The notes beneath the pieces were generated by a model. That model had not been told where the DNA came from. It made no database searches and was given only the letters and a program-made list of their open reading frames with translations. From the IMG/VR virus record IMGVR_UViG_3300017911_001692, positions 1-45,599 of that record: a stretch of DNA of 45,599 bases, one strand, 5' to 3'. The position numbers and the translations under genes are program-made. Positions 2,676-43,434 of this stretch are shown here, one piece after another. Origin of the DNA: a virus. Taxonomy: Duplodnaviria > Caudoviricetes. Position 1 is the stretch's first letter. The number at the start of each line of letters is the position of its first letter.

Positions 2676-2829
2676 GCGTCGTCAGTGGACTGTAAACGCA
2701 GAGGATTTGGCCTTCGGTGCGATGGCTGTCATCGCTGCAGGATATCTGGCCCTGTTCAGTGTAATGCTACTTACGCACGAAACAGTGTCAGAAAACATGG
2801 TATGTTTTGAGGATATTAAGAATGACTGA
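2668..2829 (+). CDS. Small single-TM protein (53 aa, not in ORF track)
   Basis: MGKRRQWTVNAEDLAFGAMAVIAAGYLALFSVMLLTHETVSENMVCFEDIKND; overlaps both neighbours and fills the gap. Confidence 0.55.
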   Translation: MGKRRQWTVNAEDLAFGAMAVIAAGYLALFSVMLLTHETVSENMVCFEDIKND

Positions 2830-3604
2830 TTTGACTTTAGACAGTCTGACCGACTGCGAAATCGAGCCCCCGCACGTCATCATATATGGCGGCGCGGGTG
2901 TGGGTAAAACCACATGGGCAGCATCAGCGCCCAAGCCCGTAATGATCAGGACTGAGAAGGTCGGCCCGATTAAAGGCGTCAAAATGTTTCCGCAGTCTCA
3001 GAGCTTTGACGACGTCATGTCTGCCCTGACCCTGCTGGCGACAGAAGATCATGATTTTGAAACACTGATAGTGGACAGCATTGACTGGCTGGAAACACTG
3101 GTGTGGAAGAACCTGATCGAGAAGCGTCCGACGAATGAGAAGGGTCGCCCTGTAAACGACATAACCGATTACGGTTTCGGCAAAGGCTTTGTGCATGCGC
3201 TCGATTACTGGGGTGATTATATCGAGGCCCTGAATTATCTGCGTGACGTCAAGAAGATGGCGATCATCCAGGTTGGCCACGCTCAGACAAAGCGGTTTGA
3301 TGATCCCACGTCAGACAGCTATGACCGATATCAACTCAAGCTTCACGACCGTGCTGCAGAGAAGCTGGCCGAGGGCGCTGACTGTGTTTTGTTTGCGAAA
3401 GCAAATCACAGCACAACCAAGGAAGATGTCGGCTTCAATAGCGAGAAGACACGTGCGGTGGGCGCAGGCGAGCGCTTCCTGCATACCGATCTTCGACCGG
3501 CGTATGACGCAAAAAATCGTTACGACTTGCCAGAGCGCATTGCGATGCCCAGAGAGAACGGCTTCTGGGAGCTGGCGAAACACTTAGAATTTTACCAAGG
3601 CTAG
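2822..3604 (+). CDS. Sak4-like (AAA_24) ATPase / ssDNA-annealing protein
   Basis: Walker A YGGAGVGKTT, Walker B-like LIVDSIDWLE, C-terminal AKNRYDLP; start moved to ATG 2822 after GAGGA. Confidence 0.85.
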   Translation: MTDLTLDSLTDCEIEPPHVIIYGGAGVGKTTWAASAPKPVMIRTEKVGPIKGVKMFPQSQSFDDVMSALTLLATEDHDFETLIVDSIDWLETLVWKNLIEKRPTNEKGRPVNDITDYGFGKGFVHALDYWGDYIEALNYLRDVKKMAIIQVGHAQTKRFDDPTSDSYDRYQLKLHDRAAEKLAEGADCVLFAKANHSTTKEDVGFNSEKTRAVGAGERFLHTDLRPAYDAKNRYDLPERIAMPRENGFWELAKHLEFYQG

Positions 3605-3615
3605 GAGAAAAATTA

Positions 3616-4077
3616 ATGGCTAATTTAGGACAAACATTCGACGCCTCACAGGTGACCCCGCAGGGCAGCTATGAGGTTATACCGGCGGGCGATTACCCCG
3701 CGATGATTACGCGCTCTGATATGAAGGACACGAAATCAGGGACAGGTAAATATCTCGAACTTGAGATCGACCTGCAGGACGGATCTGGACGCAAGCTGTG
3801 GGACAGATTGAACCTGATCAATCAGAACAGCAAGGCCGTTGAGATTGCACAACGCCAGTTGTCCTCGATCTGTCACGCTATTAACGTATTGAACGTGCAG
3901 GACAGTGAGCAGCTCCATGGCCGACTTATGACCGTGCGCGTCACTGTCAAGGAAGACCCGTCTTATGGCCCTCGCAATGAGGTTAAGGCGTACCTTCCTA
4001 CGCAAGAGACATCACCGCAACTCTCCCCATCAGCGACCCCAAGCGCTGGTGTTTTCATTCCTCCTTGGAAGCGGTGA
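3616..4077 (+). CDS. DUF669-like single-stranded DNA-binding protein
   Basis: IPAGDYPAMI...KSGTGKYLELE...NEVKAY with a PPWKR tail; follows the Sak4-like gene; RBS AGGAG. Confidence 0.8.
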   Translation: MANLGQTFDASQVTPQGSYEVIPAGDYPAMITRSDMKDTKSGTGKYLELEIDLQDGSGRKLWDRLNLINQNSKAVEIAQRQLSSICHAINVLNVQDSEQLHGRLMTVRVTVKEDPSYGPRNEVKAYLPTQETSPQLSPSATPSAGVFIPPWKR

Positions 4078-4084
4078 TTTAACT

Positions 4085-4129
4085 GGCCGCCAGCGTCTTT
4101 CCTCCTTTGGGCGCTGGCGGTCTTTTTTT
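4085..4129 (+). terminator. Rho-independent terminator
   Basis: Stem ggccgccagcgtc / ggcgctggcggtc followed by T7. Confidence 0.8.
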
Positions 4130-4143
4130 CGGGAGAGATAAAC

Positions 4144-4971
4144 ATGGTCGAGATACCAACACCACAACAACAAACACGCGATAAAATATATGCGTGGGAA
4201 GAACAGAACCAGGAAGACAGCAGACGCGAACATCTGGGCGGTTCACTGATAGGTCGGGAGTGTGAACGCCAGCTCTGGTATGGCTTCCGCTGGGCATCAA
4301 ACAAAAAACATGACGGGCGGTTGTTGCGGCTGTTTCGTCGCGGACATGAGGAAGAAGATCGTTTTGTTAAAGCATTACGCGGAATTGGGTGCGAGGTCCA
4401 TGAGGTGGATGATAGTGGCAATCAGTATCGCATGCGCGATCTTGGCGGGCATTTTGGCGGCTCCATTGATGGCGCTGTGTTGGGTCTGCCTGAAGCTCCA
4501 AAAACTTGGCACCTGACAGAGTTCAAGACACATAACGATAAGTCCTTCAAAGCGCTTGAGAAGGCAGGCGTGCAGGAGTCGAAGCCAGAACATTATGCCC
4601 AAATGCAGGTCTACATGCATTATACCGGGCTGACCCGCGCACTATATATGGCCGTCAACAAGAACGATGACGCCATATATACCGAGCGCATTAAGTACGA
4701 TGTAGCGCACGCCACAACACTGATTGAGAAAGCCAGACGCGTTATCACACGCGGCACCCCGCCTGAACGCATAGGCGGCCCGGACTGGTACAAGTGCAAG
4801 TGGTGCGACTTTAATGCCATATGCCACCAAGGCGCGGCGCCCGACAAAAATTGCCGGACATGCAGGCATTCGAAACCAAACATTGAGCAAGGCGGTTGGA
4901 CCTGCCTACAAGATTGTGAAATGGGGGATGGCCGGAGCGAGCTTCCGTGCTATGAGCCCAGAGAAATGTAA
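4144..4971 (+). CDS. Cas4-like PD-(D/E)xK exonuclease
   Basis: SIDG, EFKT, QMQVYM motifs; one N-terminal Cys plus CKWCDFNAIC cluster, then CRTCRH. Confidence 0.8.
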   Translation: MVEIPTPQQQTRDKIYAWEEQNQEDSRREHLGGSLIGRECERQLWYGFRWASNKKHDGRLLRLFRRGHEEEDRFVKALRGIGCEVHEVDDSGNQYRMRDLGGHFGGSIDGAVLGLPEAPKTWHLTEFKTHNDKSFKALEKAGVQESKPEHYAQMQVYMHYTGLTRALYMAVNKNDDAIYTERIKYDVAHATTLIEKARRVITRGTPPERIGGPDWYKCKWCDFNAICHQGAAPDKNCRTCRHSKPNIEQGGWTCLQDCEMGDGRSELPCYEPREM

Positions 4972-8707: not shown

Positions 8708-8793
8708 CGAAGAACGTAATTTCCTTGCGAATGTGGAAACAGCACAAAGGAGCAATTCCTAAAGCTATCAGTTTGTTATATGATTGGGATATT

Positions 8794-9561
8794 ATGATAC
8801 ATGAAGAAACAGGCACAAAGGATCGGAAATTAAAGGTCTTGGATTTGTTCTCAGGCATCGGCGGTTTCAGCCTTGGCCTTGAGCGAACTGGCGGCTTCGA
8901 GACTGTCGCCTTCTGCGAGATTGAACCATTTCCACAAAAGGTACTCAGGAAGCATTGGCCTGACGTACCGATATATGAAGATGTAAAGGAATTAGACGGT
9001 GAGCAATTCAAAGGATCAGTTGACGTTATTACAGGAGGATTTCCCTGCCAGGACTTATCAGTGGCGGGAGCCCAGTCAGGCATTAACGGCGAGCGCAGCG
9101 GACTATGGAGTGAGATGGTCCGACTGGTTAGCGAGATACGACCCAGATACGTTATCGTGGAAAACGTCCCAAACCTGCTTGCTGGCGACCGGGGGTCTTG
9201 GTTCGGAAAGGTACTCGGAGACTTGGCCGAGATCGGGTATGACGCGGAATGGAATTGCATACCAGCTTCCTACGTTGGCTCCCCTCAACTCCGAGACAGA
9301 GTGTGGCTTGTTGCCTACCCCGATGAAGGGAAGAAAAGGACCAGGAGGTTCGAATGGGTGTCGAGCAGCAAAAGAGAAAATAGGCCGAGATTGGTATTAC
9401 CCAGAAGAAGCAGAAATTCTGATGGGATACCCGACTGGATGGACAGAGTTGGAGCTTGTGGAAACTCCGTAGTACCACAGATACCCGAAATGATTGGTTA
9501 CGCCCTGCTCTCTCATGCAGCACCTACAGAAATTCCTATACCTACAGCAAAGGTAGAATAA
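8794..9561 (+). CDS. DNA (cytosine-5) methyltransferase, large subunit lacking motif IX
   Basis: DLFSGIGG (I), GGFPCQD (IV), VENV (VI), QLRDRVW (VIII), CGNSVVP (X); very short variable region. Confidence 0.9.
   Translation: MIHEETGTKDRKLKVLDLFSGIGGFSLGLERTGGFETVAFCEIEPFPQKVLRKHWPDVPIYEDVKELDGEQFKGSVDVITGGFPCQDLSVAGAQSGINGERSGLWSEMVRLVSEIRPRYVIVENVPNLLAGDRGSWFGKVLGDLAEIGYDAEWNCIPASYVGSPQLRDRVWLVAYPDEGKKRTRRFEWVSSSKRENRPRLVLPRRSRNSDGIPDWMDRVGACGNSVVPQIPEMIGYALLSHAAPTEIPIPTAKVE
8999..9472 (+). CDS. Nested alternative-frame protein, probable small subunit of the C5 methyltransferase
   Basis: 157-codon ORF inside the MTase gene; AAGGA before GTG; LLPTP and motif-IX-like YPEEAEILMGYPTGWT. Confidence 0.7.
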   Translation: MSNSKDQLTLLQEDFPARTYQWREPSQALTASAADYGVRWSDWLARYDPDTLSWKTSQTCLLATGGLGSERYSETWPRSGMTRNGIAYQLPTLAPLNSETECGLLPTPMKGRKGPGGSNGCRAAKEKIGRDWYYPEEAEILMGYPTGWTELELVETP

Positions 9562-15311: not shown

Positions 15312-18300
15312 CTAGTTATCATCATCAGGCCCCGTGATCAGTGCCTCGATGATTGTCGGATCGTCATCTTTCAGAAGCGTGCGTTCGAGCTTGTTAAGCT
15401 GTACCGTGCCCGGTACACCCGCTGCAAATCCAAGCGCCTCAAAAGTTCTCAGCAGCGCCTTGCCCGCCTGCTCGCCATCAAGTTCACCGTCTTCGAAAAA
15501 TGTCTCGCCTGTCTTGTAGTAAGCGTCAGCCGCTTCGACGACGCTTGTGCCTGCAGAGAAAGCCGCCGGGCGTGCATCATACCGAGAGAAGAACGTGCCA
15601 GCCCCAGGAAGGACACCGATAGAGTTTCGCCACATCATCTTGAGCCAGTTGACGACATACGGATCTTCTTCGTCTCCAAACCCGTTGCGCAACAGGGCCT
15701 CAATCGCTGAGGAAATAACAACGCTCATGGCAATAAACTTGACCATGGCCAGTGTCTTGCGCTTTGCCCCTTCTTGGCCCAGCTCGGCGCGTGTGTTGCC
15801 ATAGACGCTCGACACGTAGCCCCACATAAAGGTGACAAGGCGCTCCATCTCATTACCGCCCTGCAGGACGCTCTGATCCATCTCAAGCCCGGAGCCCTGC
15901 GTGGTGGACACGGCCCTGTCCGCTTCTGCGACTGCGACCGCCTCGCTCTTGCCTTCCATGATTGCCTGTTCATAGACGCCCATCCACAATGGCCCCGACA
16001 CTGTTGCTTTTTCTATCGACGCCATTAACCAGAAACCGCTACCCTGAAAACGTGAATACGCGGAACTAAATGGCTGTTTCGTAATGCGCTCGTGAGCCTC
16101 CCGGTTGATGTTCTGCGTCCGCTCACGCATAAAGGAAGACTTTTCGTTTATGAGCTTGTTTGCTCTCACGACATTGCCGTAATAGCTTACCATGCCGCGC
16201 CCGACCGTGATGGCGCTGTAACGCGTCAGGACAGTCTGTGTGTATGATATGGGCGCCAGCACCGCCGTCACCACATTGTTACCGAGGATCGCCACGGTGG
16301 CGTTTACCCGCGCCCCGCGCAGCAGCTTCTCGACATCAGATGTCGGCGGTTGCGTGCCCGCAGCCGTGCGCTTGAGCATGGTCTCCATTGCCTTGAGATA
16401 TGCCCCGCCAAATGTGCTTTCGACAGCGTTCGCGAATTGCTCACGCTTGAGCACATCCCATATCTGTGTGATCGGCTCACGCAGATAGATGTCTGTCGTG
16501 GCTTCCTGGAAATGCTCCATGGCCACACTAAGCGAGAGATGCAGTGGGCGCTCACTATTGGCTTCCCGCTCTTTCAGGAAACCCTGTTTCGTTTGCGCCT
16601 TGGAAGCCACACCTGCCACACGCTGCGCCCACATTTCCTTAGCATTCTTTTCCGTGATGTCGCGGTTTAACTCAGGGTCATAGCGCAGAGGATAGTAACC
16701 GCCCGCATAGGTGCCGTGTGATGTGACCAGTGCCGTAGGGTCGACACGCTTCGGCGTGACGCCTGTCAGTTTGCGTTCCTGCTCGAAGGCAGGAGCGCGC
16801 AGCGTGTCGATCAGCGCCCAGATTTCCTGAGCCGCATCAAAGTGGCGCTTCTCAAGGTGTTGCTCCAGCAACGCAATCAAGTCTTCTTTTTTATCGATTG
16901 CAATCATGCGATCACCCAGAAGCCGCGACACGTTGCCGTCAGAGCCCATATTAAGCAGCACGGCCAGCAGGGCCTCAAACTTGACATCGCCCACTGGCGT
17001 CAACTCAGGGACCGACACAACCCGGTGCAGCTCCGACTGTGTGATATTGTGGCGTTCCAATATCTCGACATATTGCCGGTCAAGGTCGGCCATGTGCTTA
17101 TTACGCTGGCCCATGGCCATACGCAGCTTGATGTCGAAAAAGTCAATCAGCTTGCCCTTTTTGCCGCCCTGCCACATCTCGGCAATAAACGGTATACGCA
17201 TGACCTCCGCATCCTTGCGGCGCACCCAGTCGCGGATTTTCTCGCCACGTGTCTTGACTGTACGCTGGCCACCCATGCGCTTGAGATTGCGCGATCCCCA
17301 TGTCTTGACCACCTCGTCACCCAGCTCAGCGGCGACCTTGACCTTGGCCACCCTCGCCTCCTCGCTCATGTCGCGCCCGACCTTGGTCAGGTTTTTGACA
17401 TTGTCGCGATAGTCCCGCAGCTGGTCCATCGACATGTCACGCAGATCAGGGATCGGCTTATCGATACCAGAAAGCGACACTGGCTTGCCGTCAGCCTGCT
17501 GGGCTTTCTCGAAGGCCTGCAGCTGTGACAAAACCTCGGACTGTTGTGGCTGTCCGGGCAGGTTTAGTAACGCAATTATCTGCTCACGATACTTAGAAGC
17601 GATACGCTTTTCAGCGCCCTTTTTCTGCATAGATCTCTGTGAGCGCTTGAGATACGCCTTGACGCGCCGGACTTCGTCTTGCGCCTTGAAAGCACGCCTT
17701 GCCAGTTCATGCTGCAGCATGGCCTGGTGTGTCTCACGCAGGGCCTGATCCCATTTACCGTTTGCCGCAGACCTAATAGAGCGCTTGTGCAGATCACGCG
17801 CCTTGATCGCATAACGCCCCGGCTTGATGACATCCTTGATCGGCATGGTGCGAATGCGCCGCTCAGCCTCTTGCTTAAACACTTCCAGAGGGATCGGCTG
17901 TTTGCCCGCCTGCTGTGCAAGAACGTCGCGCTCAGCTTCCATCATCTTGATTGATGGCTCATTGAACACCGCCGCGATGGCCTCACGTTGCGCCGTGCCG
18001 TCATTCTCGATATCGCCAAAGCGCCGTTTCAGCTCTGCCTCGACTTCCGCCGCAATGGTTTCCTTGATCGGCCTCAGACCGATCAGAGCTGTCAGCATGG
18101 CATCGCCGGAAGTGAAGCCGTATTTGCTCGCCACAAAGTCGGGATGCGCCCCGCCCTTCTTATGCACGCCGCGCTTACTGCGTGGTATTTTTGCAACAGC
18201 GCTCTTGCCGCGCATTTGCTCGATCACTTTGGTGTCGATCTGTTCATCTGTCGTGGTCAGGGCGATGAAGGCGCGATAAGGCGGGCGTGCCTCGACATCG

Positions 18301-21300
18301 GCCCGAACTTGCTCTTCGACTTCTTCCCTGGCGGCCTTGTATTCCTTGCTATTGCGCTTGTTGATCTGGTCTATAAATTTGCGATACAGCTTTTCTCTTG
18401 CCAGCTCGCCAGCCTTGCGCGCCTGATCTTCGTATTTCGCCACAAGCTCCTCGTCCATGAGGCCGCTCATTGTGCTGGATAGGTTGCGTGTGTATTCCTG
18501 CTGCGCCGCGCTGATCTCGTCATCCGTAGCCAACATGGCGTCAAAGACTTCACGGGCTTTAGAATTGAGCTTAGGCAAAGGAAGATTGCGATAGACGTCA
18601 GTGAACCAGGCCTTGAACGTCCGGAACACGGCACGCATGCCACGCGTGGGCGCCTTGCCTTCCATGAGATACACTTCGAAGCTCTCGGCAAAGGTCTCGT
18701 GTTGCTGCGTGGTAAATGGCTTGCCTTCCTCGGCCCCCAGCCATTCGCGGATGTCTTTCATCTGCTGTGTGATAAACGCGTTCTGGCCGTCATCCAGAGA
18801 CCGGTATATCTCTAGGAAGATGTGAGCGCTTTCATGCAGGAAGGATGTCTTGTCAGCCGCCTCAGTCAGCCGGACAAGGACATCTTTGTCAGATAGGATA
18901 TCAGCAGGATCGAAGGTGACGGAAGCGCGTGGGCCTTGGCCTTCCTGCTGGAATAGTGTAAAGCCCTCACGCTTGACGCGACCGCGCATCTCTGGCGTCA
19001 GCTCAATAATCCAGTAACCTTCTGTGTCTGACCAGCCACCAGCTTCAGCCCACGCCTCAAGCTCTTGAACAAAGTTATCAGCTATTTCGCCCGTGTGGTT
19101 CCGCTTAACATCTTCTGTGCGCCACACTACGTCCTCAATGTTATTGGCTTCCAAATCTGCACGAAGGTCCGCCCCATCCTCGCCCAAAGCCTCATAAGCC
19201 TTAACATACATGTCTGTTCGGGTTTTGCGGCTTTCTATCGGCTCACCGTCGAAGTCCATGTGCTTGGCCTTGGCGCCGAGCAGCTTCTGAGCGGCCTTGA
19301 CCATCTTCTTGTCATACATGTTTTCATACAGCTCAGAATAGCGATCAGACCAGCGGTTTTTGACCACCTGTGCATCAGCCCAAGCAATGGCGTCCTTGCC
19401 CTCGCCGACCGCTTGCAGGATCATTTTCTTAATGAGCAGATTAATCCATGCGTCACCTTTGAATGGGGCATCTGGGACTGGTCTACTCAGCGCTGTTAAG
19501 CCCTTCTCCGCCGCCTGCGCCTTTTTATCCATCATGCGGTGGACATTTAGACGTTCAACAACAGCGCTGATATAAGTTTGCATGTCCGCGCTCAGGCTTA
19601 TGTTTGTACCGGAAAAAACATGCGAGAGGTCTGCGCGATGACCAAATCGAACAGGATCTGTAAAATTCTCAGCGAATGATTCGAATGTAGCACGGTCTGT
19701 CCAGAGCGCCAGTTCGAACTCATCCAGTGTAGCATCGGTTTCCGTATCATTCAGAGGCACCCCGTTTACAAACTCAACGCCCATATCCTTCAGGGCATAA
19801 GAAAGTAAATTTTCTTTTTTGCCATACTCCACGGACAACCGCTGAAAAGCAGCTTCTGATTTCTCTCGCAGCGCCTCAGACCTTTCCTTCAGCTCCCCCA
19901 TGGCCCGCTTATTCAGTTCCACCATCGCTTGCGCTTTGGCCCGATCTTTTTCATTATCATAAATGCCCCTGCGCCCCTGCTGATGCCAGTCGGATTGGGC
20001 TTCGTCGATGAAGAGAGCGTCAGCATCGTTTAGCCACCGATCAGTCGTTCGCGCCCACGCGACAATATTAGGATCAGCAAAGTGAGATTTTTCAACAAAA
20101 TCGCCCGGCACATCGGGAAGCGTTATCTTAAATTCACGGTAATTCTCATAGTCACCTTTTGTTACATAGTCCTCCCACTGAGCGCGCTCACCAACGCCTT
20201 CTTCGTCACCTATAAGACCTTCTTCTGAGGCCCATTCACGGGCTTGAATTTCTGCCTCTTCTTGAGACCAAATATCACTTCGTACAACGCTATTGTCCAT
20301 CATGTTTGTTCGGACATCCCAGCCTGAATCATCATTTCCAAACAGCATTGCGATCTGATAACCGTCTCCGTCCCTTACGGATATGATTTTTATCGGATTT
20401 CCAAGATATTCTTCTCTTGCCTCGCCTTCGGCACGATCTGACAAAATTACATCATGCCTTTCCTCAATCTCGTCAGCAAAGTTCTCACGAGCATATTCGA
20501 GGATTGCCTCCCCGCTGGCGTCTTCGCCAAGCGCGTTTTTAATATATTCCTGTTCCTCATCGGCAATTTCTTTTGCCGCTTGTTCAGATAGCGCTGGTTC
20601 GCCAAGCAGGTATTGATAATGACCTTCAATCAGCCATTCCCACGCTTCAGGATCATCCCATGTTTCAGCCTCGCCAAAAGTGACGATGCCACCCCCGCTA
20701 TCCCCATCTGTTGTGGCCTCTATTGTTTCGACGCGAACACCCCTTTTCTGGATAGCGCTAACAATGTCCGCTTTTTCAAAAACAAGAGGGCCATCAATTT
20801 CAGCTGCTTCGTGTTCTTCTTTGCGGGCTTGAAGCATATCCAGGATGCCTGTCCACTCAAGCTCCTCCCTTTTAACGCCTTTCAAGTTTTCAATCGTTTT
20901 GACCCATTGATCGACAGGTGCCCGATCCATGTTAATTTCGGAAACCTTGCGCTCAAGAGCTGAGTAAAAGCCGTCACTTATAATGTCCTGCTGGAATAGT
21001 GTCAGCATATCACTGGTCAGCGGTGGCAGTTTCTCGCCGCTTGCGATGGCCTTTTCGATACGCTTGGCCATATAGTCCCGCGTGATCTGGTCATTCGCCA
21101 GAGCCGACAAGGCGGCGTCAATCTCGTCACGCAGATAGAACTTGCCATCAGAGCCCACAAAGCCTGATTGGCCATCCTCGCCATTGATATTGCGCAGAGG
21201 CCGCCCGATGGCCTTCTCGGCCTTGATCGCCGCCTCGCCATGATCTCTGCCAGTGTAGACCTGTCCTTCGACACGCACGGCAGCATAACGCAGGCTTGGA

Positions 21301-24300
21301 GCCTTGCCGCCCTGAAATAGTTCTCTTTCTTGGCTTAATTTTTCTTCAATGTCTTCTGCGACTTCTCTTGTGCCGCTTTCAGTACCAATCGCATCGAGGC
21401 CGAGTTCAGACCCTCCCAGGGTTTTCTCTGTGGCAGAACCTCGATCACCTTCGATGATTTTTCTGGCTGTTTCTTCATAGCTAATATCCGCAGTCGCCCG
21501 CGCCCCTAGTTCTGCATAAAGTCGTTTTTCATAATACCACAACACAGCTTGTATGTCAGCAAGCGTAAGGTCAACCCCACGTTCTGACAGCTTTTCTTGC
21601 GCACGAATAGTGGTGTTGACCATAAACTCTCTATCAGACGCATTAAATGGCTGATCTTCCAGTCCCTCAAATGCAGCTTTATATAGCGTGTTCGCAGCCT
21701 TTTCGATCTCGGTTCCGTTCTTGTACCCCTTAGCCTTGTACGACCGAACGTAATCCACAGTACGTGCAAGCGCCTCGTCATCTGTCATAAGCTCTGGCGG
21801 TTCGCTTAGGCGCTGATCTTGGCTGACCAATATTTTAAACCGCGCAAGTCCGGCTTCAGTTGGTTGAGTTAAAAGCGTACCGCGATAACGGTTAAATGTG
21901 CGCGACCACCACCGGTCCATTGTCAGGTAGCCCGCCTCACCCATTAGGTTGGCGTAAAATGCGCCCAGTTTCGGACCAAAAACTACAGCAGCATATGGTA
22001 GTTCCATATTTGCTTTGTAAGCGGTTGAAAATGATTGTCCGCTTTCCTTGGCAATTTTTTTCAGATTGGAAATCGTGTCTGTCTTAAGCAGTTGCGTTGC
22101 CAGATTGTCTGGGCCAAGATCATCCAACGCAGTTTGAATATTTTTCAAGTTGATCTGCATAGACTTGTTTCGCTCGCCGCCAAATGTAACCTGGTGGTCA
22201 ATTCGGCCCGTTTCGCGAAAGCCGCGCATCACATCCACGGCAAAGCGGAAATTTTGCTCCACTTTTGCGCCATCGGACGTGATCGCGATCAAAGCTGTAA
22301 AGAAATCACGGGCATTCTGCTGCGTGCCTAGCAATTTCACGCCTGGCTTGGAAAAATCCATATCCCCAACAAGCTCAGGAAAAACATCACCAAACACGTC
22401 TAAGGCGGTCTGAAATTTTTGGCTATACCAGCCGACCGCTGACTTTTCTGGATTTAGTGCGGCCTGCTCAACCTCAAACATGACCTCTTCCACAGCGAAG
22501 TCAGCAATCTTTTCAGACGCTTCATCAGAATAATCACCGCGCTCAATAGTGCCATATTTTTCTCGCTGTCGGCGCTCAAGCGCCAAGGCAACGTCGCGTG
22601 TCTTGGGTATGCGCTCTTTTGACGGGACATTTAAAACTTCCTCCCCGCGACGTATTGCAGCGCTCTGAAATAGTATCCTTGGATCATTCGGATCAAACGT
22701 GCCGCGATTGTTGACTGATTTAATTTGTGTGGGGTCGAAAGCGACAATTTCACCGCCTGTATCGATCCCGTCATAACCTTGAGATTTGAGTATATCTATA
22801 GAAGAAACACCGCTTGCCGTAGCCTCGGCCTCGGCTTCAGAAGCAATGTTTTCTGGCGCAGGATTTTTGATATTTACATATACCGGGTAAACCGCGCCGA
22901 CAGTTTCATCAGCAGGGTCAGCATAAAAAGACGCTTCGTTAGCGTCCCTTGTTAAATAAATTCCTTGGCCATACGTACCGCCTTCAGACACTTGGAAAGC
23001 GTCAATATCTGCTCTTGTCCCATGATAAACCACTAGTGGCTCACCAGCTTCGTCGACAACCTTGCTATCTCCAAACCACCGCTTAAAGTTTTCGTCCCGG
23101 TTGATCACGCCAGACTGGTCATAGGTGATGCCATCTTCGTCTATCTCAGTCGTAAAAGCCCTGTCTTTTGCCCCTAACTGACTTTTTAAAGTCTTTACTT
23201 TTTGAGGGAACGCACTTCCATTTTCCCCTATAAGCAAAACAGGAATTTTTTTTATCCCTAATCGCTTTGCCGCCAAAGCTCTATGCCTGCCATCATGGCT
23301 ATCAATTTTCCCGTCCTGCATAACGCTTAACCGTGGGGGGTCAATTTTGCGCCCGCTAAGCATTATTTCAGCAATATCGTCTATATTTTCTTTAGAGTCT
23401 TGATCAATATATAATTCAGCAGATAAACCCAAAAACTGATCTGGCGTCATCTCTACAAACTTGCCGCCAATCTCTTTATAGTTAGAAAATTCATATTCAG
23501 GCGGGATGGCCGCAGGATATTCTTTTAATTGTTTATCTTCTGGTTTTTTTGTTTCTTTATTTTTAGATGCTTGCTTTTTGCCCCACTCGATCAATTCTTC
23601 TAATTCTTCCAAGTCTTGAATATTGACTTGAAATAATTCAGCCTCAGGCTCGGCTTGTGTCTCCTCGGCCATGAGCACCTTGACGATCTCGTCATTCGTC
23701 ATGGTGTTGAGATCAAGGCCGCGCTCGTCTAAACGGTTCTCCAAGTCGAGCAGCGTCTCACGCCGCGCCGCACGCCTCTCGTCGCGGTTCTCTGGCCTGT
23801 AATATGGCTGACCGCTTGTCAGGATTGCCTCAAGCTCGTTGAGGCTTGGCCGCTCCTGGAAAAAGCCCTTGTCCAGCGCCATACCGCCAAACTCGTCAAG
23901 GGGCCCATCCTCTTTCACGCCGCGCTTGAGAAAGCCCTCTTTATCGTACAGGCCAGCCGTGCGCGCCATGCTCTGCAGTGTGCTGCCATACGACGCCCGC
24001 TCTGACGGGATCGCACCGCGGCGCAGATCATCCAGATCAATGTCAAGCTGACCCACTTGGCGACGCGGCTCAGGGCCTCGCATTTGCAATCTGAGCTTTT
24101 CAAAGATTTGCTGTTCATCAAGCCCAGCCTCAGACAGTCGCTTGTAAAAAGCGCCCCAGAGCTTGCCAGCCTTCGCCGCCACTTCGGGTGGCTGGTTTTG
24201 CTCTTGCATCATCTGAGTGACTTGGCGCTCGACATTCTCAAAGCCCTCAAGCGCCAGATCTTCTTCGTTTAGACTGGCGATCAGTTCATCATGATCGACC

Positions 24301-25778
24301 TGCAGCGCTTCATTGAAGGCTTCATTCGCAGCCTCGACCAGCGTCAGCTCGCCTTCATGCGTGCGAGTGATAGACACGATCTCGTCAAAGTTATTTTTGA
24401 CCACAAGGATTTTTGCGGCCTCGACTTCAATATCATTGCCCGCCAAGGCTTGCTGGATCTGTTCATCAGTCAGACCCATGTCGCGTAAGGTCTGCAGGCC
24501 CTCAGCCGACTGCATAAGCTCGACAACACCCGCATCATCGAGCAGGACAGTCTCGCCATTTGTGGCCTGACGGATAAACTGTTCGACAGTCTCACGCTTG
24601 CGCTCATAGGCTGGTGTGGCCTCAACAGCCTCGCGCAGATCAGACATATTTTTCTGAAAGTTTTGTGCGTTCAGTTGTTTCTGACGGCCCGGCAAGGTCG
24701 CCTCGACCAAGGCCTGAAACACCGCCGCAGATGTGCCAGCTACTGTCGCGGACTCAATCGCGCCTTCAAACAGCCTCGCCTCTGGATCATACCCCTGTGC
24801 CACCATGTTCTGGGCGATATTCTCAAACGCCTCTTGAATAGCTTCCTCGCCCGCCTGCCCGGCAATGCGAGACATGATGCCGCCCGCAAGACGATTGCGC
24901 ACAGAGCGCGGCAACACCTTCAAGACAGAGCCAAGACGCAAGGCCTCAGAGCCGCCCGTGATGCCCGCGCCCATAGCAAGGTCCATCGGCCTGCTGGCTG
25001 GATCGATGCCAAGCGCCCGCATTCTCTGGGCCTGCTGATCAGCACCGGCACCCGCAAACAGGGCCATCGTCGCAGCCTGCCCGCCCGGCAAAAACGAAAT
25101 ACCCACCGCGCCCGCAATCTGGCCCAAGCCCTCGGCGACCTGATCGACAAAGCCCTGCTCCTCTGGCCGGATAATATCAGCCAGCTCCGCAACGCCGCCG
25201 CCCACATCCATAAGAATATTGTCCCCAGGGGCTTCGTATGTTTCCTCCAGCCCGCTGGCTATGCCGAGCGTTGCTTGTATCTCCTCGGCTGTTCTATATG
25301 TCTCACCAATACCCCGCACGCCCGTGCCCACCAAGCTGGCAGCGCCCGCAGCGACAGAGCGCGGAACGTCAGTGATCTCTGCCAAAGCACCCCGGCCCGG
25401 CGACAAATCCTGCAATCTCCTCTCAAGCTCAGCCAGCTCAGCCACGCTATCAGAAGTCATGATTGCATTTTGGGGATCGGCCATAAATGTGGACAAGGCG
25501 GTCGAATTTATAAGCGCTTCTTGCTGGCGCTTGCGAGCCCTCTCAGCCTCATATTCTTTTTGCTTCCGCAATGTATATGGCAGCGGCACACCGAACTCTT
25601 GCGAGCTTTCGATGGCGCTTACCCCAGCCTCTGGCGTGACATCCCGGAAGACTTTCAGATTAGTGATCGCCTCTCTCTGGCGCTCAAGAGCCAGATCGGT
25701 GAACATTTCATCCACAGTAGGAATTTTTTCTTTTTTCTCTGCCTGTAATTCGGCGAATAGATTATCAATTTTCGACAC
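15312..25778 (-). CDS. Giant (~3,490 aa) internal virion / ejection protein, polyvalent, with multiple enzyme-like domains
   Basis: Position of T7 gp16; DGRHR ParB-like, VVYHGT/GIYLT ART-like, GPK/TMDRW glycosylase-like and LHESAH zincin motifs; GTG 25778 is the likely start (ORF open from 25814). Confidence 0.85.
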   Translation of the reverse strand: MSKIDNLFAELQAEKKEKIPTVDEMFTDLALERQREAITNLKVFRDVTPEAGVSAIESSQEFGVPLPYTLRKQKEYEAERARKRQQEALINSTALSTFMADPQNAIMTSDSVAELAELERRLQDLSPGRGALAEITDVPRSVAAGAASLVGTGVRGIGETYRTAEEIQATLGIASGLEETYEAPGDNILMDVGGGVAELADIIRPEEQGFVDQVAEGLGQIAGAVGISFLPGGQAATMALFAGAGADQQAQRMRALGIDPASRPMDLAMGAGITGGSEALRLGSVLKVLPRSVRNRLAGGIMSRIAGQAGEEAIQEAFENIAQNMVAQGYDPEARLFEGAIESATVAGTSAAVFQALVEATLPGRQKQLNAQNFQKNMSDLREAVEATPAYERKRETVEQFIRQATNGETVLLDDAGVVELMQSAEGLQTLRDMGLTDEQIQQALAGNDIEVEAAKILVVKNNFDEIVSITRTHEGELTLVEAANEAFNEALQVDHDELIASLNEEDLALEGFENVERQVTQMMQEQNQPPEVAAKAGKLWGAFYKRLSEAGLDEQQIFEKLRLQMRGPEPRRQVGQLDIDLDDLRRGAIPSERASYGSTLQSMARTAGLYDKEGFLKRGVKEDGPLDEFGGMALDKGFFQERPSLNELEAILTSGQPYYRPENRDERRAARRETLLDLENRLDERGLDLNTMTNDEIVKVLMAEETQAEPEAELFQVNIQDLEELEELIEWGKKQASKNKETKKPEDKQLKEYPAAIPPEYEFSNYKEIGGKFVEMTPDQFLGLSAELYIDQDSKENIDDIAEIMLSGRKIDPPRLSVMQDGKIDSHDGRHRALAAKRLGIKKIPVLLIGENGSAFPQKVKTLKSQLGAKDRAFTTEIDEDGITYDQSGVINRDENFKRWFGDSKVVDEAGEPLVVYHGTRADIDAFQVSEGGTYGQGIYLTRDANEASFYADPADETVGAVYPVYVNIKNPAPENIASEAEAEATASGVSSIDILKSQGYDGIDTGGEIVAFDPTQIKSVNNRGTFDPNDPRILFQSAAIRRGEEVLNVPSKERIPKTRDVALALERRQREKYGTIERGDYSDEASEKIADFAVEEVMFEVEQAALNPEKSAVGWYSQKFQTALDVFGDVFPELVGDMDFSKPGVKLLGTQQNARDFFTALIAITSDGAKVEQNFRFAVDVMRGFRETGRIDHQVTFGGERNKSMQINLKNIQTALDDLGPDNLATQLLKTDTISNLKKIAKESGQSFSTAYKANMELPYAAVVFGPKLGAFYANLMGEAGYLTMDRWWSRTFNRYRGTLLTQPTEAGLARFKILVSQDQRLSEPPELMTDDEALARTVDYVRSYKAKGYKNGTEIEKAANTLYKAAFEGLEDQPFNASDREFMVNTTIRAQEKLSERGVDLTLADIQAVLWYYEKRLYAELGARATADISYEETARKIIEGDRGSATEKTLGGSELGLDAIGTESGTREVAEDIEEKLSQERELFQGGKAPSLRYAAVRVEGQVYTGRDHGEAAIKAEKAIGRPLRNINGEDGQSGFVGSDGKFYLRDEIDAALSALANDQITRDYMAKRIEKAIASGEKLPPLTSDMLTLFQQDIISDGFYSALERKVSEINMDRAPVDQWVKTIENLKGVKREELEWTGILDMLQARKEEHEAAEIDGPLVFEKADIVSAIQKRGVRVETIEATTDGDSGGGIVTFGEAETWDDPEAWEWLIEGHYQYLLGEPALSEQAAKEIADEEQEYIKNALGEDASGEAILEYARENFADEIEERHDVILSDRAEGEAREEYLGNPIKIISVRDGDGYQIAMLFGNDDSGWDVRTNMMDNSVVRSDIWSQEEAEIQAREWASEEGLIGDEEGVGERAQWEDYVTKGDYENYREFKITLPDVPGDFVEKSHFADPNIVAWARTTDRWLNDADALFIDEAQSDWHQQGRRGIYDNEKDRAKAQAMVELNKRAMGELKERSEALREKSEAAFQRLSVEYGKKENLLSYALKDMGVEFVNGVPLNDTETDATLDEFELALWTDRATFESFAENFTDPVRFGHRADLSHVFSGTNISLSADMQTYISAVVERLNVHRMMDKKAQAAEKGLTALSRPVPDAPFKGDAWINLLIKKMILQAVGEGKDAIAWADAQVVKNRWSDRYSELYENMYDKKMVKAAQKLLGAKAKHMDFDGEPIESRKTRTDMYVKAYEALGEDGADLRADLEANNIEDVVWRTEDVKRNHTGEIADNFVQELEAWAEAGGWSDTEGYWIIELTPEMRGRVKREGFTLFQQEGQGPRASVTFDPADILSDKDVLVRLTEAADKTSFLHESAHIFLEIYRSLDDGQNAFITQQMKDIREWLGAEEGKPFTTQQHETFAESFEVYLMEGKAPTRGMRAVFRTFKAWFTDVYRNLPLPKLNSKAREVFDAMLATDDEISAAQQEYTRNLSSTMSGLMDEELVAKYEDQARKAGELAREKLYRKFIDQINKRNSKEYKAAREEVEEQVRADVEARPPYRAFIALTTTDEQIDTKVIEQMRGKSAVAKIPRSKRGVHKKGGAHPDFVASKYGFTSGDAMLTALIGLRPIKETIAAEVEAELKRRFGDIENDGTAQREAIAAVFNEPSIKMMEAERDVLAQQAGKQPIPLEVFKQEAERRIRTMPIKDVIKPGRYAIKARDLHKRSIRSAANGKWDQALRETHQAMLQHELARRAFKAQDEVRRVKAYLKRSQRSMQKKGAEKRIASKYREQIIALLNLPGQPQQSEVLSQLQAFEKAQQADGKPVSLSGIDKPIPDLRDMSMDQLRDYRDNVKNLTKVGRDMSEEARVAKVKVAAELGDEVVKTWGSRNLKRMGGQRTVKTRGEKIRDWVRRKDAEVMRIPFIAEMWQGGKKGKLIDFFDIKLRMAMGQRNKHMADLDRQYVEILERHNITQSELHRVVSVPELTPVGDVKFEALLAVLLNMGSDGNVSRLLGDRMIAIDKKEDLIALLEQHLEKRHFDAAQEIWALIDTLRAPAFEQERKLTGVTPKRVDPTALVTSHGTYAGGYYPLRYDPELNRDITEKNAKEMWAQRVAGVASKAQTKQGFLKEREANSERPLHLSLSVAMEHFQEATTDIYLREPITQIWDVLKREQFANAVESTFGGAYLKAMETMLKRTAAGTQPPTSDVEKLLRGARVNATVAILGNNVVTAVLAPISYTQTVLTRYSAITVGRGMVSYYGNVVRANKLINEKSSFMRERTQNINREAHERITKQPFSSAYSRFQGSGFWLMASIEKATVSGPLWMGVYEQAIMEGKSEAVAVAEADRAVSTTQGSGLEMDQSVLQGGNEMERLVTFMWGYVSSVYGNTRAELGQEGAKRKTLAMVKFIAMSVVISSAIEALLRNGFGDEEDPYVVNWLKMMWRNSIGVLPGAGTFFSRYDARPAAFSAGTSVVEAADAYYKTGETFFEDGELDGEQAGKALLRTFEALGFAAGVPGTVQLNKLERTLLKDDDPTIIEALITGPDDDN
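18943..21002. repeat. 17-bp perfect direct repeat tcctgctggaatagtgt (18943-18959 and 20986-21002) bounding a 681-codon module
   Basis: Identical sequence at both sites, each encoding TLFQQ on the minus strand. Confidence 0.9.
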
Positions 25779-27456
25779 GGTTTTTTTCCATTTGTGCCCG
25801 CACAAATTCACCAACGCGGTTTGGCGGTATAAGTTTGCCTTCTTCTACGGACCTAGACATGACCGCTTGATAGGCCTTCTCGACTTCTCTTTCGTCAAGC
25901 TGGCCATCGAAGACCAACTCAGTCACTATATTTCTGTGCTCAGGCAGGATGTCATCAAATTCAACAAGGCCAACAATAGTTGTCTTGTCGTTAAACAAGC
26001 CAGGCCTTGTGACGCGGACCTCTTTAGCAAGTCCGTTCATTACGTCTTGTTCTTCTTCATTGGTCAGAGGCGCGCCCTTCTCGGCCTCAGCCTGCTCAAG
26101 CAATGTGGTGGCACGCAAACGGAACCGCCCGCGTTCGTCCTTGTCTTCAATCCCTTGCTCGTCCATTAGCGCATTGATGACTGTATTTGTACCAATGGCA
26201 GGGTCTGGCCTACGATTTCGCTCATTAAGTACCTTGCTCTCAAGCCGACGATAATCATCTTCCGCCAGCTGCGAGCGCGCTTCCGTCAAGTCGACCTCTG
26301 CCAGATCGCGGCCCTGCAGGCTTATCTTGTCTTCGTAATAGGAAAAATTTGTTGTCGTGGCCAAACCCTGCCCACGCTCATAAGTAGCGCGCAGATATTT
26401 CCGGCTTTCATCACTCAGCGCCATATACACGCTTGGCGGCAATTCGTCAGGCGGCACGCCCTGACTGACCAAGCCGAAAGCCTGATCAAACACCGCTTCT
26501 GTGTTCTGCACCTTCTCGACTTTGCGCTCACTGACCAGCGTCTTGTATCGGGAGACAGCCTGATCCTGCAGGTCCTGATCACCTTCAAACTGGTCACGAA
26601 TGGCAATCGTTGCCTTGCGCACATCATCGCCATGCGTCCCATACATCTCAGTCGCGACCTCTTGCGAGCGCTGGCCTATCGTCGCCCGGTCGATCAGCTC
26701 GACTGCATTGGCGCGGTCAACGCCGGTCAGCTCGACTGTGTTCAGCAGACGTTGCGCAGTTTCAATGTCGTTCGTGTCAACAGCCGCGCTGATCGCAGTC
26801 AAACCAGTTTGAGATTTATATGCCTCAATCGCCGCGCCAATGGCTTGGGCGCTTTGCCCGACATTCGCCGCCCGTATGGCGCCGACACCCCGCGCAATAC
26901 TTTCACTGTAAGCCTCCGGATCGGTCCGGTTCTCGACAGCAGTCGTGGCAGCAGATACCGACATACCCTTAAAGGCGTTCTGATTGTAAGCCTCACGCTC
27001 GTCAAATTTGTGCGCCGTCATCTTATTGAGCACGCTGCGCCTGCGTGGCCCCCACAGTGACTCAAAAGCCGTCCGAGCACCCGGCGACATGTCCGCGACA
27101 ATGTCGTCGCCAATCTTCTTTAATTGCTCAGAATAATTATCGTATGACGTTTCAGGGTCGATGCCGTTCAATGCCAAATAGCCATTATCTCCGCGCAGAA
27201 GTTCCCGAACTTGGCCATCTGCTAAGTCATAAGCCGCAGCCGCGTCAGCCGCGTCATTCGTTTGCTGTATCTCCAAGGCCCGCCGTTCGATGGCCTGAGC
27301 CCGTTCGTCAGCCGCCCGGCCCACCGCCATGAGGCCCTCACCCGCAGCCGCCAAGCCACGAGCCTGAGCAGCGCCAAAAGCATCCGGCGACGCCTGCAGG
27401 TTTTGCCGCGCCTGGCTGGTCTGGATTGTCGCCGAGGAGAGTGGAACCTGTGGCAT
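25765..27456 (-). CDS. Internal virion / ejection protein (T7 gp15 position)
   Basis: Helical Ala-rich 563 aa; start MPQVP after AGGGG; gene order. Confidence 0.7.
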   Translation of the reverse strand: MPQVPLSSATIQTSQARQNLQASPDAFGAAQARGLAAAGEGLMAVGRAADERAQAIERRALEIQQTNDAADAAAAYDLADGQVRELLRGDNGYLALNGIDPETSYDNYSEQLKKIGDDIVADMSPGARTAFESLWGPRRRSVLNKMTAHKFDEREAYNQNAFKGMSVSAATTAVENRTDPEAYSESIARGVGAIRAANVGQSAQAIGAAIEAYKSQTGLTAISAAVDTNDIETAQRLLNTVELTGVDRANAVELIDRATIGQRSQEVATEMYGTHGDDVRKATIAIRDQFEGDQDLQDQAVSRYKTLVSERKVEKVQNTEAVFDQAFGLVSQGVPPDELPPSVYMALSDESRKYLRATYERGQGLATTTNFSYYEDKISLQGRDLAEVDLTEARSQLAEDDYRRLESKVLNERNRRPDPAIGTNTVINALMDEQGIEDKDERGRFRLRATTLLEQAEAEKGAPLTNEEEQDVMNGLAKEVRVTRPGLFNDKTTIVGLVEFDDILPEHRNIVTELVFDGQLDEREVEKAYQAVMSRSVEEGKLIPPNRVGEFVRAQMEKNRVEN

Positions 27457-33065: not shown

Positions 33066-33674
33066 CTATGTTCTGGCCATTGAGGGATAGAGCTTTTCTT
33101 CTAAGGATTTTTCATTGCGAATAGGGGCAGACTTGCCGTCCATCGCATCCTCAGAAAGTGAAGCCCCGACGCGATGCATAAACTTGATCATTTCAGGGTT
33201 GTTTCCCATTCCAGTCTCAAGCAGCATTTTGCTGAAACCCTCGCCAGCATACGCAACGGCTTTCTTGGCGATCTCGACATTAGTATCGAACTGATTGCCC
33301 CATTCCGTTTTGATCTCACTGGTCCAGTTTTCAGCGACTTCTTTTTGAAGCGCACCTTGGCTCTCAGCCATCTTGAGCTGGTAATCAGAGAAGAAACTCA
33401 CGAGCTTCTGCGCCTGATCCTGGCTCAGCTTGAGGTCTTGAAACAATGGTTTCGCTTCATCCAGTAATGCGGCGTCAAGCTCGATGCCTTCCGGCGTCTC
33501 GAACTCTCCATATTCTACGGCATCACCTTCGTTGCTCTCGGCTGTGGCCTCGGCCTCAGCTTCGGGCGTGGCATCTACGGTCGCGTCATTTTCCGCAGGG
33601 GCCTCAGTGGATACATCACCAGCGTCCGCGTCAGTGGTCTCTTGTGCGGCCAGAACAGTGTCAGTTTCCAACAT
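33066..33674 (-). CDS. Capsid scaffolding protein
   Basis: Acidic; LSQDQAQKLV, EWG, GNNPEMIKF...G...SED; directly before the major capsid gene. Confidence 0.82.
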   Translation of the reverse strand: MLETDTVLAAQETTDADAGDVSTEAPAENDATVDATPEAEAEATAESNEGDAVEYGEFETPEGIELDAALLDEAKPLFQDLKLSQDQAQKLVSFFSDYQLKMAESQGALQKEVAENWTSEIKTEWGNQFDTNVEIAKKAVAYAGEGFSKMLLETGMGNNPEMIKFMHRVGASLSEDAMDGKSAPIRNEKSLEEKLYPSMART

Positions 33675-38991: not shown

Positions 38992-39327
38992 TTTCGTTGC
39001 CTCGCTAAAAAACAATATTCCCAAACACTAACAACGCGCCCAAACAACAACAACCCCAAACATTGAGTTATCCACAGCATCGTGTGCCACGCTACCACGG
39101 CAGTAGTTTTTTTGCATTTGGGAAATTTTAAAAAGGTAATTAATGCGAAAAAATCAACATCCCTGAACCCCAACAGCCATAAGGGATACAGAGAACTATA
39201 TATTAAAAAAAATAATTATTTTACTAATTTCCTTACTGTGTATGTTCTTGTTCTCAGTGTTGGTCTGCTTCCCTCTCTCTATTACGGTGCCCGGAAATTT
39301 AGAAAATAATTCCCCTATGCCCCACAA

Positions 39328-39610
39328 ATCGCCCGCCATCATTGAGATGTAGAAGAATAGTATTCGGCAAAAAAAATCTTTCCCAAATGCAATTATGGAA
39401 AATAACCCCCCCTCCCGTTGACAGAACCTCAATACGTAAGTCTCTCCCCATATTATACAGCACAGAAATTTGTAAAATAACTCGGCTCCTATCTCAGATC
39501 GCCCGCCATCATTACGATCTGGAATTTTAGTAAAATTACTTTTTCAATTTTCCCAAATGCAAAAATGTAAAAAGTGCTGCCTACCCCGTTGACATGAACT
39601 CAATACGCAG
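39328..39610 (+). repeat. Degenerate ~170-bp-period tandem duplication in the AT-rich divergent control region
   Basis: atcgcccgccatcatt (39328/39498), tcccaaatgcaa (39381/39551), ccgttgaca-N-ctcaatacg (39418/39589). Confidence 0.85.
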
Positions 39611-42801: not shown

Positions 42802-43434
42802 ATGAAAAAGTTTGCTTTATTTTTGTTCGATTACACAACGAACGTCGCCCGGCCTTGGCGTGAGGCCGGTTATGAAACCCTGTCTATAGACATACAGCAC
42901 CCCCTGCGTGAGCGAGGTTCGCACATCCTGAATGTTGATCTGACGACAACGGGACCGCTACTTGTAGAACTGAAGCGCCGCGGCATCGGACTAGATGACA
43001 TCGCTTTCCTTGGTTGCTTTCCTGTATGCACGCATGTGGCGGTCAGCGGGGCGCGTGATTTTAAAATCAAGGGCCTCCGGGCATTGGCTCAAGCTGTGCA
43101 ATTTTTTGCCACTTGCAGAGAGATGGCTGAGCTGGTTTCGTGCGAATGGTTTATTGAAAACCCTGTTTCTAGCATGGCCAGCCATTGGCGCAAACCGGAT
43201 CACTATTTTAATCCGTCCGATTATACGGGCCTGTGCGCAGAGGATAATTACACCAAAAAAACCAGCCTGTGGACTAGTCCGGGCTTTGTGATGCCACCGC
43301 CTGTCAGAGACACAACACTCGGACCGCCTGACGACCGCATACACAAAGCGCCACCGACAAGCGACAGGGGCGACGTCAGGTCTGCATTCCCAGCTGGTTT
43401 TAGCCAAGCTGTTTTCGAGGCGAACAGGTTATGA
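42802..43434 (+). CDS. Short phage Dcm-like cytosine methyltransferase
   Basis: LFDYT...PWREAGY, FPVCTHVAVSGARDF, IENPV, YTKKTSLW, RSAFPAGFSQAVF. Confidence 0.75.
   Translation: MKKFALFLFDYTTNVARPWREAGYETLSIDIQHPLRERGSHILNVDLTTTGPLLVELKRRGIGLDDIAFLGCFPVCTHVAVSGARDFKIKGLRALAQAVQFFATCREMAELVSCEWFIENPVSSMASHWRKPDHYFNPSDYTGLCAEDNYTKKTSLWTSPGFVMPPPVRDTTLGPPDDRIHKAPPTSDRGDVRSAFPAGFSQAVFEANRL

Follow-up and report, generated by a model that had tools for sequence, protein, structure and literature searches.

The stretch of DNA analysed here (hereafter the window) is the whole of the virus record IMGVR_UViG_3300017911_001692, i.e., 45,599 bases with direct terminal repeats, found in seawater metagenomes, and the subject of this study is the giant gene of this marine phage, which encodes 3,500 amino acids (aa) at 15312..25814 on the minus strand and carries, in its middle, a string of variable modules joined at copies of a short peptide motif. 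Judging from its genes, the phage is a podophage of the BPP-1/epsilon15 type, with a terminase, portal, GP7 capsid, Bbp16 cement, adaptor, nozzle, the internal virion proteins (IVPs) IVP-A, IVP-B (T7 gp14 family) and IVP-C (lysozyme-like), the giant gene, and a tail spike.

The giant gene is the last and largest of the IVP block and matches PHROG 9880 (E 6e-97 and 5e-87). Its product (3,488 aa in the database version, whose start is placed 12 codons downstream) matches Bbp10 of BPP-1 at 26.6% (tblastn, E 2e-35), and Bbp10 is listed among the homologues of IVP-D (PMC4819975). Given this synteny and homology, the protein is likely packed in the head and injected, and its entry before any gene expression is plausible from the same homology. 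Several unrelated effector or LPD domains (LPD22, ART-PolyVal, and a ParB-like domain) are found in the one chain, and the domain architecture varies among homologues. The combination of LPD22, ART-PolyVal, and the HESAH signature of a zincin identifies the product as a polyvalent protein in the sense of PMC5512222, and an anti-host role of its cargo is assumed here from that family.

Architecture of the giant protein

The protein, all of whose features lie on the minus strand, opens with a conserved N body that includes an LPD22 domain (25398..25670, aa 49-139; Pfam PF18834, E 6e-9) and closes with a zincin-like metallopeptidase domain (18525..18929; HESAH at aa 2327-2331, E2373 and E2380), the candidate processing enzyme, followed by a conserved helical C body (15312..18524), in which the motif is in no excess ([LF][FYN]Q, 46 observed vs 67 shuffled). 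The cargo between these parts is divided by six joints into five modules, M1 to M5. An earlier note on this DNA had described the joints, and its coordinates all proved correct on re-checking. It had overlooked a seventh copy of the motif, LMQ, in the N body (24510..24518, aa 433-435), in which L433 and Q435 are nearly invariant in 35 homologues; this copy reads LMQS here and in Bbp10, LFQS in Carin1 gp32, and LYQS or LFQS in relatives. It stands some 300 aa ahead of the cargo, and may be the oldest of the sites or else inhibit the zincin from within the same chain.

Joint 1 (23628..23636) reads LFQ in AT-rich codons (TTA TTT CAA) like those of M1, within whose insertion or deletion (indel) it falls. 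M1 itself is a ParB/Srx-like module of 498 bp (23145..23642; PHROG 1033, E 5e-5) with a third-position GC content (GC3) of 0.34. Joint 2 (23115..23123, aa 898) reads YDQ and is retained in a related strain that is without M1; the earlier note had listed it as a degenerate joint (ITYDQ), and YDQ is a true variant, present at like joints in homologues. The next module, M2 (22675..23114), is an ART-PolyVal ADP-ribosyltransferase (domain at aa 921-1039; PF18760, E 5e-25), and joint 3 (22665..22674), ACTATTTCAG (LFQ), is the conserved ART-PolyVal end. Beyond M3 (21322..22664), a DUF7178-like module (Atlas 0.95 to DUF7178 clusters), joint 4 (21312..21321) is again ACTATTTCAG (LFQ). M4 (21003..21311) has about 105 aa and a body-like GC3 of 0.65, with relatives in P0016 and L096 and no family match in profile or family searches. 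Joint 5 (20986..21002) and joint 6 (18943..18959) both read T-L-F-Q-Q and are the two copies of a 17-bp repeat, between which lies M5 (18960..20985), a module of about 680 aa with no match in family searches and no named Atlas match; the 2,043-bp segment from repeat to repeat is missing in the related strain. Joint 6 connects cargo to chassis, and its Q2289 is at least 90% conserved in 79 sequences. The M5 of L001, the closest M5 relative, has an extra internal stretch of about 105 aa that is not bounded by the motif.

The model of M3 is confident and helical (predicted local distance difference test, pLDDT, 93.9). Foldseek returned no significant match to it, the rows of highest probability being AGOG 8-oxoguanine glycosylases (AGOG E 0.39), and a sequence-profile search of M3 against the PDB gave nothing significant, so that its likeness to AGOG or helix-hairpin-helix glycosylases is a weak, model-based lead. 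The module has 118 confirmed viral matches and is widespread, being carried by several chassis that are unrelated to one another; its D-R-W and D-x-Q-A-x-x-W blocks are invariant.

Codon identity at the joints of the window

The first observation to be explained is the recurrence of the motif itself. LFQ occurs five times in the whole protein (aa 727, 1048, 1499, 1606, and 2287), each time in the variable middle, where 3,000 shuffles of aa 701-2295 gave a mean of 0.18 and at most 3. The second is the identity of its codons: the 10-mer ACTATTYCAG is found four times in the genome of 45.6 kb, always at LFQ, and its reverse, taken as a control, not once, while CTA, which the earlier note had thought uncommon in the flanks, accounts there for 6 of 170 Leu codons and, in the cargo with the joints set aside, for 11 of 111. 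The probability of at least four CTA among five is about 0.0008 from the cargo codon pool, and that of at least four of any one codon is 0.03. The perfect 17-bp repeat (18943-18959 and 20986-21002), measured directly since the pair is absent from the 20 largest of at least 60 families given by the repeat finder, was equalled in 143 of 20,000 synonymous permutations.

Base composition likewise differs from module to module, as had been claimed: GC3 is 0.63 in the N body, 0.34, 0.40, 0.46, 0.65, and 0.49 in M1 to M5, and 0.67 in the C body. The sharpest drop (0.78 to 0.25) lies at aa 723, a few codons before AELFQ and not at the motif. The window ranks first among 77 genes for excess shared junction codons, and therefore represents an extreme case rather than the rule.

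Conservation of the peptide across relatives

The earlier note had read these observations as a plug-in system, in which cassettes would be exchanged in frame by recombination at a conserved DNA site, ACTATTYCAG, a site that a dedicated recombinase would read in the strict form of the idea. Within the window, this reading is favoured by the four copies, all at joints, and, outside it, by two features of the related strain that are described below, namely an exact M5 loss at the 17-bp repeat and a probable duplication of 15 bp at joint 3, and by a 2.2-fold enrichment of CTA at LFQ elsewhere. Across the family, on the other hand, it is largely refuted, given that the codons of the motif vary freely, which the note had itself named as grounds for giving the idea up.

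A database search returned 1,520 matches to the giant protein, of which the best 120 (the window's own record included) span 1,932-3,816 aa, and 109 representatives (peptidase region below 70% identity, at least 900 aa before HExxH) were drawn from 228 proteins. The domain set proved not to be fixed, as the earlier note had expected: the cargo of the 109 ranges from 256 to 2,682 aa, and M2 is present in 36, M3 in 29, and M5 in 20 of 108 relatives, in eight combinations, with M1 and M4 found in none of the 108. After many different upstream modules, [LFY]-x-Q is nonetheless present within the 42 aa before HExxH in 102 of the 109 representatives (27.7 of 108 in random windows), and [LF][FYN]Q is in excess in the cargo (220 vs 52 shuffled). 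The middle residue is variable (F, Y, N, E, D, A, H, and others). The chassis joint, like the N-body copy, is still present in relatives of about 30% identity, and the motif forms part of the conserved end of several modules (ART-PolyVal, M5).

The DNA behaves otherwise. The Leu codons of LFQ in 80 other genes (n=73) are CTG (38), CTA (9), TTG (9), CTC (8), CTT (6), and TTA (3), and ACTATTYCAG was found at just 1 of 74 LFQ in other genomes and at 1 of 36 joints that precede M3 elsewhere. There is no excess of codon sharing either: pairs of motifs within a gene share the same codon 1,203 times, where permutation gives 1,275 +/- 34, in a set that includes some non-joint matches, which dilute the test. 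A general homogenisation of joints within genomes was likewise rejected, with 39 genes above expectation and 36 below. No integrase or other site-specific recombinase of the tyrosine or serine type was found among 27, 13, and 33 proteins scanned (overlapping sets of open reading frames of 80 aa or more), the M1 break lies outside the motif, and a second lineage shares only TTCCA at its breaks. As the peptide is kept across relatives and the DNA is not, the motif is likely a protein cutting signal and not a DNA recombination site; the array is not a new DNA recombination system, and a conserved site with its own recombinase is scarcely tenable.

A variant of this idea leaves the peptide without any function, the motif being a leftover recombination handle that is copied by insertions and kept since like-ended modules recombine easily. 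It would account for the motif as the end of several modules and for the surplus, in other genes, of exact repeats of at least 13 bp between two joints (6 vs 1.1 +/- 1.0, reached in 0 of 1,000 permutations), each with its own sequence and two of the six being the same pair in related loci. A DNA handle, however, predicts the reverse of what is seen, in that codons vary while L/F/Y and Q stay; the chassis joint and N-body copy persist at about 30% identity; and a stub of M5 in another locus keeps both motif-bearing ends after a loss of 507 codons. This variant is therefore very improbable.

A reading of the motif as a beta-clamp-type signal, QxxLF, was rejected as well, given that the fixed residue here is a Q that follows the hydrophobic pair, with the middle residue free.

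Association of the motif with the zincin chassis

Since M3 travels between chassis, it allows the motif to be compared among them. M3 was collected from 80 loci, which gave 71 distinct frames, 68 of them with enough upstream sequence; these loci are interrelated, and the counts that follow are not independent events. In proteins of the window's chassis, M3 begins at [LFYM]-x-Q in 36 of 39 cases (6.3 expected), and these 36 starts use 10 first codons and 14 middle codons. In other chassis, i.e., those with an upstream HExxH and no match to the window's chassis, matches were found in 4 of 14 (1.8 expected), inside the module, the boundary being R/S-S/T instead; among the unclassified frames, the motif was present in 10 of 15. 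Over whole proteins, the strict motif occurs 132 times in the 39 of the window's chassis, vs 68 +/- 8, and it is unenriched in 13 M3 proteins of other HExxH chassis (17 vs 21 +/- 3; one duplicate dropped). Some of these other chassis (L109, L122, L154, L157, L164, L170, L174, L177, and L179) seem to use F/Y-S-R, R-S-T-V, or L-S-T-R, with weak enrichment for the patterns tried.

The motif thus follows a chassis that bears a peptidase. The zinc ligands and the general-base Glu of the zincin (H58, E59, H62, E104, and E111) are invariant in 79 sequences, with the HExxH and downstream Glu that mark the zincins of polyvalent proteins. Its model (pLDDT 87.5) has strands and helices that match the description of such metallopeptidases, and the joint ahead of it is modelled with low confidence (pLDDT 57 at residues 11-20). 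The joint flanks are Pro-rich and poor in hydrophobic residues. The motif recurs at joints that are flexible and goes with a peptidase of the same polypeptide, as would be expected in a self-processing polyprotein.

A different enzyme might do the cutting, either a host protease or the 202-aa product of 33066-33674 (minus strand), which matches PHROG 458 (E 5e-40), a family labelled 'protease', has relatives labelled protease or peptidase in 8 of 25 records among the matches listed, and carries one LFQ itself at aa 77. This protein is, however, acidic and lies between the portal and capsid genes, like a scaffold. Besides, the motif follows the zincin-bearing chassis and is unenriched elsewhere among the virion genes, 11 of which have between 0 and 2 copies each, which makes a second enzyme quite improbable.

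Alternatively, the motif may be a protein signal that is bound and not cut, i.e., a docking or threading handle for folding, for packing, or for feeding the modules through the ejection channel. Such a handle would account for all of the chassis-specific conservation and for the conserved copy in the N body, and two further points in its favour, the Pro residues that may follow Q and the intact N4 polymerase, are given below among the difficulties of cleavage. Against it stand the invariance of the general-base Glu and of all the zinc ligands, and the form of the motif, short and with one fixed residue, as protease sites are. The DdrB protein of phage P1 is moreover processed, according to PMC5512222. 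A docking handle is thus judged unlikely.

Gain and loss of modules in nature

Whole-module indels are seen in a related strain, known from alignment tables alone, which differs from the window at 158 of 3,030 bases, an identity of about 95%. It is represented by contigs of the runs X3, X4, and X5, the tables of X4 and X5 being near-identical and maybe one data set; run X2 offered scattered pieces only, which are uninformative on the presence or absence of modules. This strain is without M5, 2,043 bases being skipped at a joint of 18942-20986, where 17 letters fit both sides. It is also without M1: 498 bases are skipped at a joint of 23144-23643, with a 5-letter overlap, CTGAG. The M1 break precedes the first LFQ by about three codons and YDQ by about seven, and is thus beside the motif and outside it; the LFQ of joint 1 is part of the M1 insert, and the GC3 drop from 0.78 to 0.25 described above falls at this break. 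After the absence of both modules, one motif per joint is retained.

A contig of the same strain has 1,105 bases where the window has 334 at joint 3, and the surplus of 771 bases is exactly 257 codons. On the short side of the joint it includes a 75-base piece, which would correspond to 22665-22739 and have the Q codon of joint 3 as its end. We infer an extra 257-codon module flanked by a 15-base duplication at this joint, the tables not displaying where in the contig the piece is placed.

Among the stored loci, 349 close pairs yielded 13 indel rows that reduce to three events. In a second lineage, a 203-codon module has its left break exactly at LFQ and its right end at FFQ, with only TTCCA in common. 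Another event is a 192-base replacement away from the motif. The third, between L148 and L149, is an in-frame loss of 1,521 bases (507 codons) inside M5, and the stub of about 30 aa that remains is the one mentioned above.

All six events are in frame, three of them at the motif (one inferred) and three away from it. The proposal in the earlier note that modules are gained and lost in frame is therefore borne out, by M5 between the 17-bp repeats and by the break of the second lineage at LFQ, and its conserved DNA site is not; nor do breakpoints fall at the motif as a rule, with half of the events breaking elsewhere. No relative came up when viral contigs were searched with one protein at a time, namely the peptidase region, the N body, or the 202-aa product of 33066-33674, and a 20-nt exact scan found a single unrelated locus and no related strain.

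L001, the closest relative with M5, has other codons at both M5 ends, and the 17-bp repeat accordingly looks like the joint of the recipient. As M5 also has a GC3 below that of M4 and of the body, an insertion into the lineage of the window, with duplication of the resident joint, is favoured over a deletion in the relative, the less probable course.

A proposed self-processing array

The reading preferred here, to which we assign a probability of roughly 0.55, is that of a conserved chassis with variable cargo, in which the joint peptide [L/F/Y]-x-Q serves as the cleavage site at which the zincin of the same protein releases the modules. The chassis would consist of the LPD22 N body, the HExxH zincin, and the helical C body, with the cargo string between them, and the zincin would release the modules by cutting at the motif, either in the head or after injection. 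New modules would be acquired through recombination between short stretches of identity (5 to 17 bases in the events seen), and an insertion would survive if it kept the frame and one motif per joint. As every joint encodes a similar peptide, the joint codons would be a frequent point of crossover; an insertion there would leave the resident joint on both sides, and repeated insertions would give rise, by descent, to the four CTA-TTY-CAG joints and the one 17-bp repeat. The shared CTA codons are thus likely to be copies left by recent insertions at short homology.

The exchange would probably proceed through the annealing system of the phage, which is encoded outside the array by genes for a Sak4-like annealase (PHROG 124, E 1e-35), a single-stranded DNA-binding protein (SSB; PHROG 6015), and a Cas4/RecE-like exonuclease (PHROG 1990/434) at 2807..4971 on the plus strand. 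Sak4 anneals oligonucleotides diverged by up to 20% (PMC5928155). In this phage it may act on 5 to 17 bases.

Several points weigh against this reading. Cleavage by the zincin at the motif is a prediction from sequence. In 17 of 102 chassis joints the residue next to Q is Pro, which sits poorly with cleavage on that side of Q, and the cut may consequently fall before L/F/Y. Zincins often prefer to cut before such residues, and the new ends would then be N-degron residues. The peptidase has no significant structural match in a PDB profile search, Foldseek, or VIA-align, its weak zincin rows serving as leads only. CTA is mildly high at LFQ in other genes (9 vs 4.0, i.e., the 2.2-fold cited above, z 2.6, six codons tested), with LF without Q giving 1.34-fold; this excess leans towards a DNA site and is explained in part only by descent from recent insertions. 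Alignment ends fall near the motif in 35 of 105 cases (16.6 expected) and starts in 25 of 106 (15.7 expected, borderline), and neither gain nor loss is proven as the direction of the M5 and M1 events. Experience with other phages is also unfavourable: the N4 virion RNA polymerase, which retains an HExxH domain, is packaged and purified at full length (PMC5512222; PMC13492108; PMC13434306), and the virion proteomics of phiRIO-1, a phage of another lineage, gave no clear processing, IVP-D included (PMC4819975).

A broader version, less likely than not, may be put forward tentatively, namely that BPP-1-like podophages carry a self-templating cargo magazine, in which [L/F/Y]-x-Q would be both release signal and, by way of its codons, preferred crossover, each module landing in frame, open to cutting at once, and duplicating its joint for the module to follow, with clade-specific codes, so that thousands of giant virion genes might be split into injected effectors.

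Relation to known systems

Earlier publications already describe this protein family with its passenger domains, and they propose self-processing. Polyvalent proteins with a zincin-like metallopeptidase (Iyer et al. 2017, PMC5512222) likewise gather many effector domains in one late-gene polypeptide, among them LPD22, ART-PolyVal, a ParB/Srx-like domain, and an HExxH+E peptidase, and autoproteolysis by the latter has been proposed since 2017. The text consulted of that work names no junction motif, cut site, or breakpoint rule, whereas the family of the window offers a chassis-specific motif and exact natural indels. The IVP-D proteins of the epsilon15/BPP-1 group (Bbp10; Hardies et al., PMC4819975) share with the giant protein both sequence similarity and gene order (nozzle, IVP-A, IVP-B, lysozyme-bearing IVP-C, giant protein, tail spike), and IVPs are known to host passenger domains (PMC4819975). 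Bbp10 has about 160 aa between two copies of the motif, Carin1 gp32 has two modules between three, and the protein of the window has five modules. In gp32 of the Cobetia phage Carin1, the motif stands at aa 572, 901, 1490, and 1603. In the literature covered, largely outside the subscription journals and without supplements, no paper was found that names a junction motif or processing in this protein group, and the available text of preprints that deal with phi24B and with PhiXacm4-11, a relative of Cp2, holds nothing on giant-protein processing.

Two kinds of better-known systems offer parallels. The self-cutting viral polyproteins with Gln sites, those of the 3C/3CL and potyviral NIa proteases, also join their modules at a short motif in which a Gln is fixed, and carry the protease within the polyprotein itself; the giant protein has a zincin instead, whose cutting at the motif is predicted. 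Integron attC and shufflon sfx are cassette systems with DNA sites, and, together with the polymorphic-toxin cassettes, they share with the array the in-frame exchange of effectors within a fixed gene. Unlike them, the array has no conserved site, no dedicated recombinase among the proteins scanned, and no silent cassette array, and the 5-17 bases at which it crosses over are different in each event, without a single site position. Polymorphic-toxin cassettes are mentioned in PMC5512222.

The family now has an exact and testable motif, present also in cultured phages (Carin1 gp32, Bbp10). The motif sets module boundaries from which candidate injected effectors, such as M3, M4, and M5, can be mined, and the pair of strains gives a direct view of the gain or loss of whole modules in frame.

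Other features of the genome

Two genes for DNA methyltransferases lie at 8725-9561 and 42802-43434, both on the plus strand, and one of them is of the C5-cytosine type. The segment at 39001-39500, which adjoins the terminase genes, is AT-rich (GC 0.39) and coincides with a switch of the coding strand.

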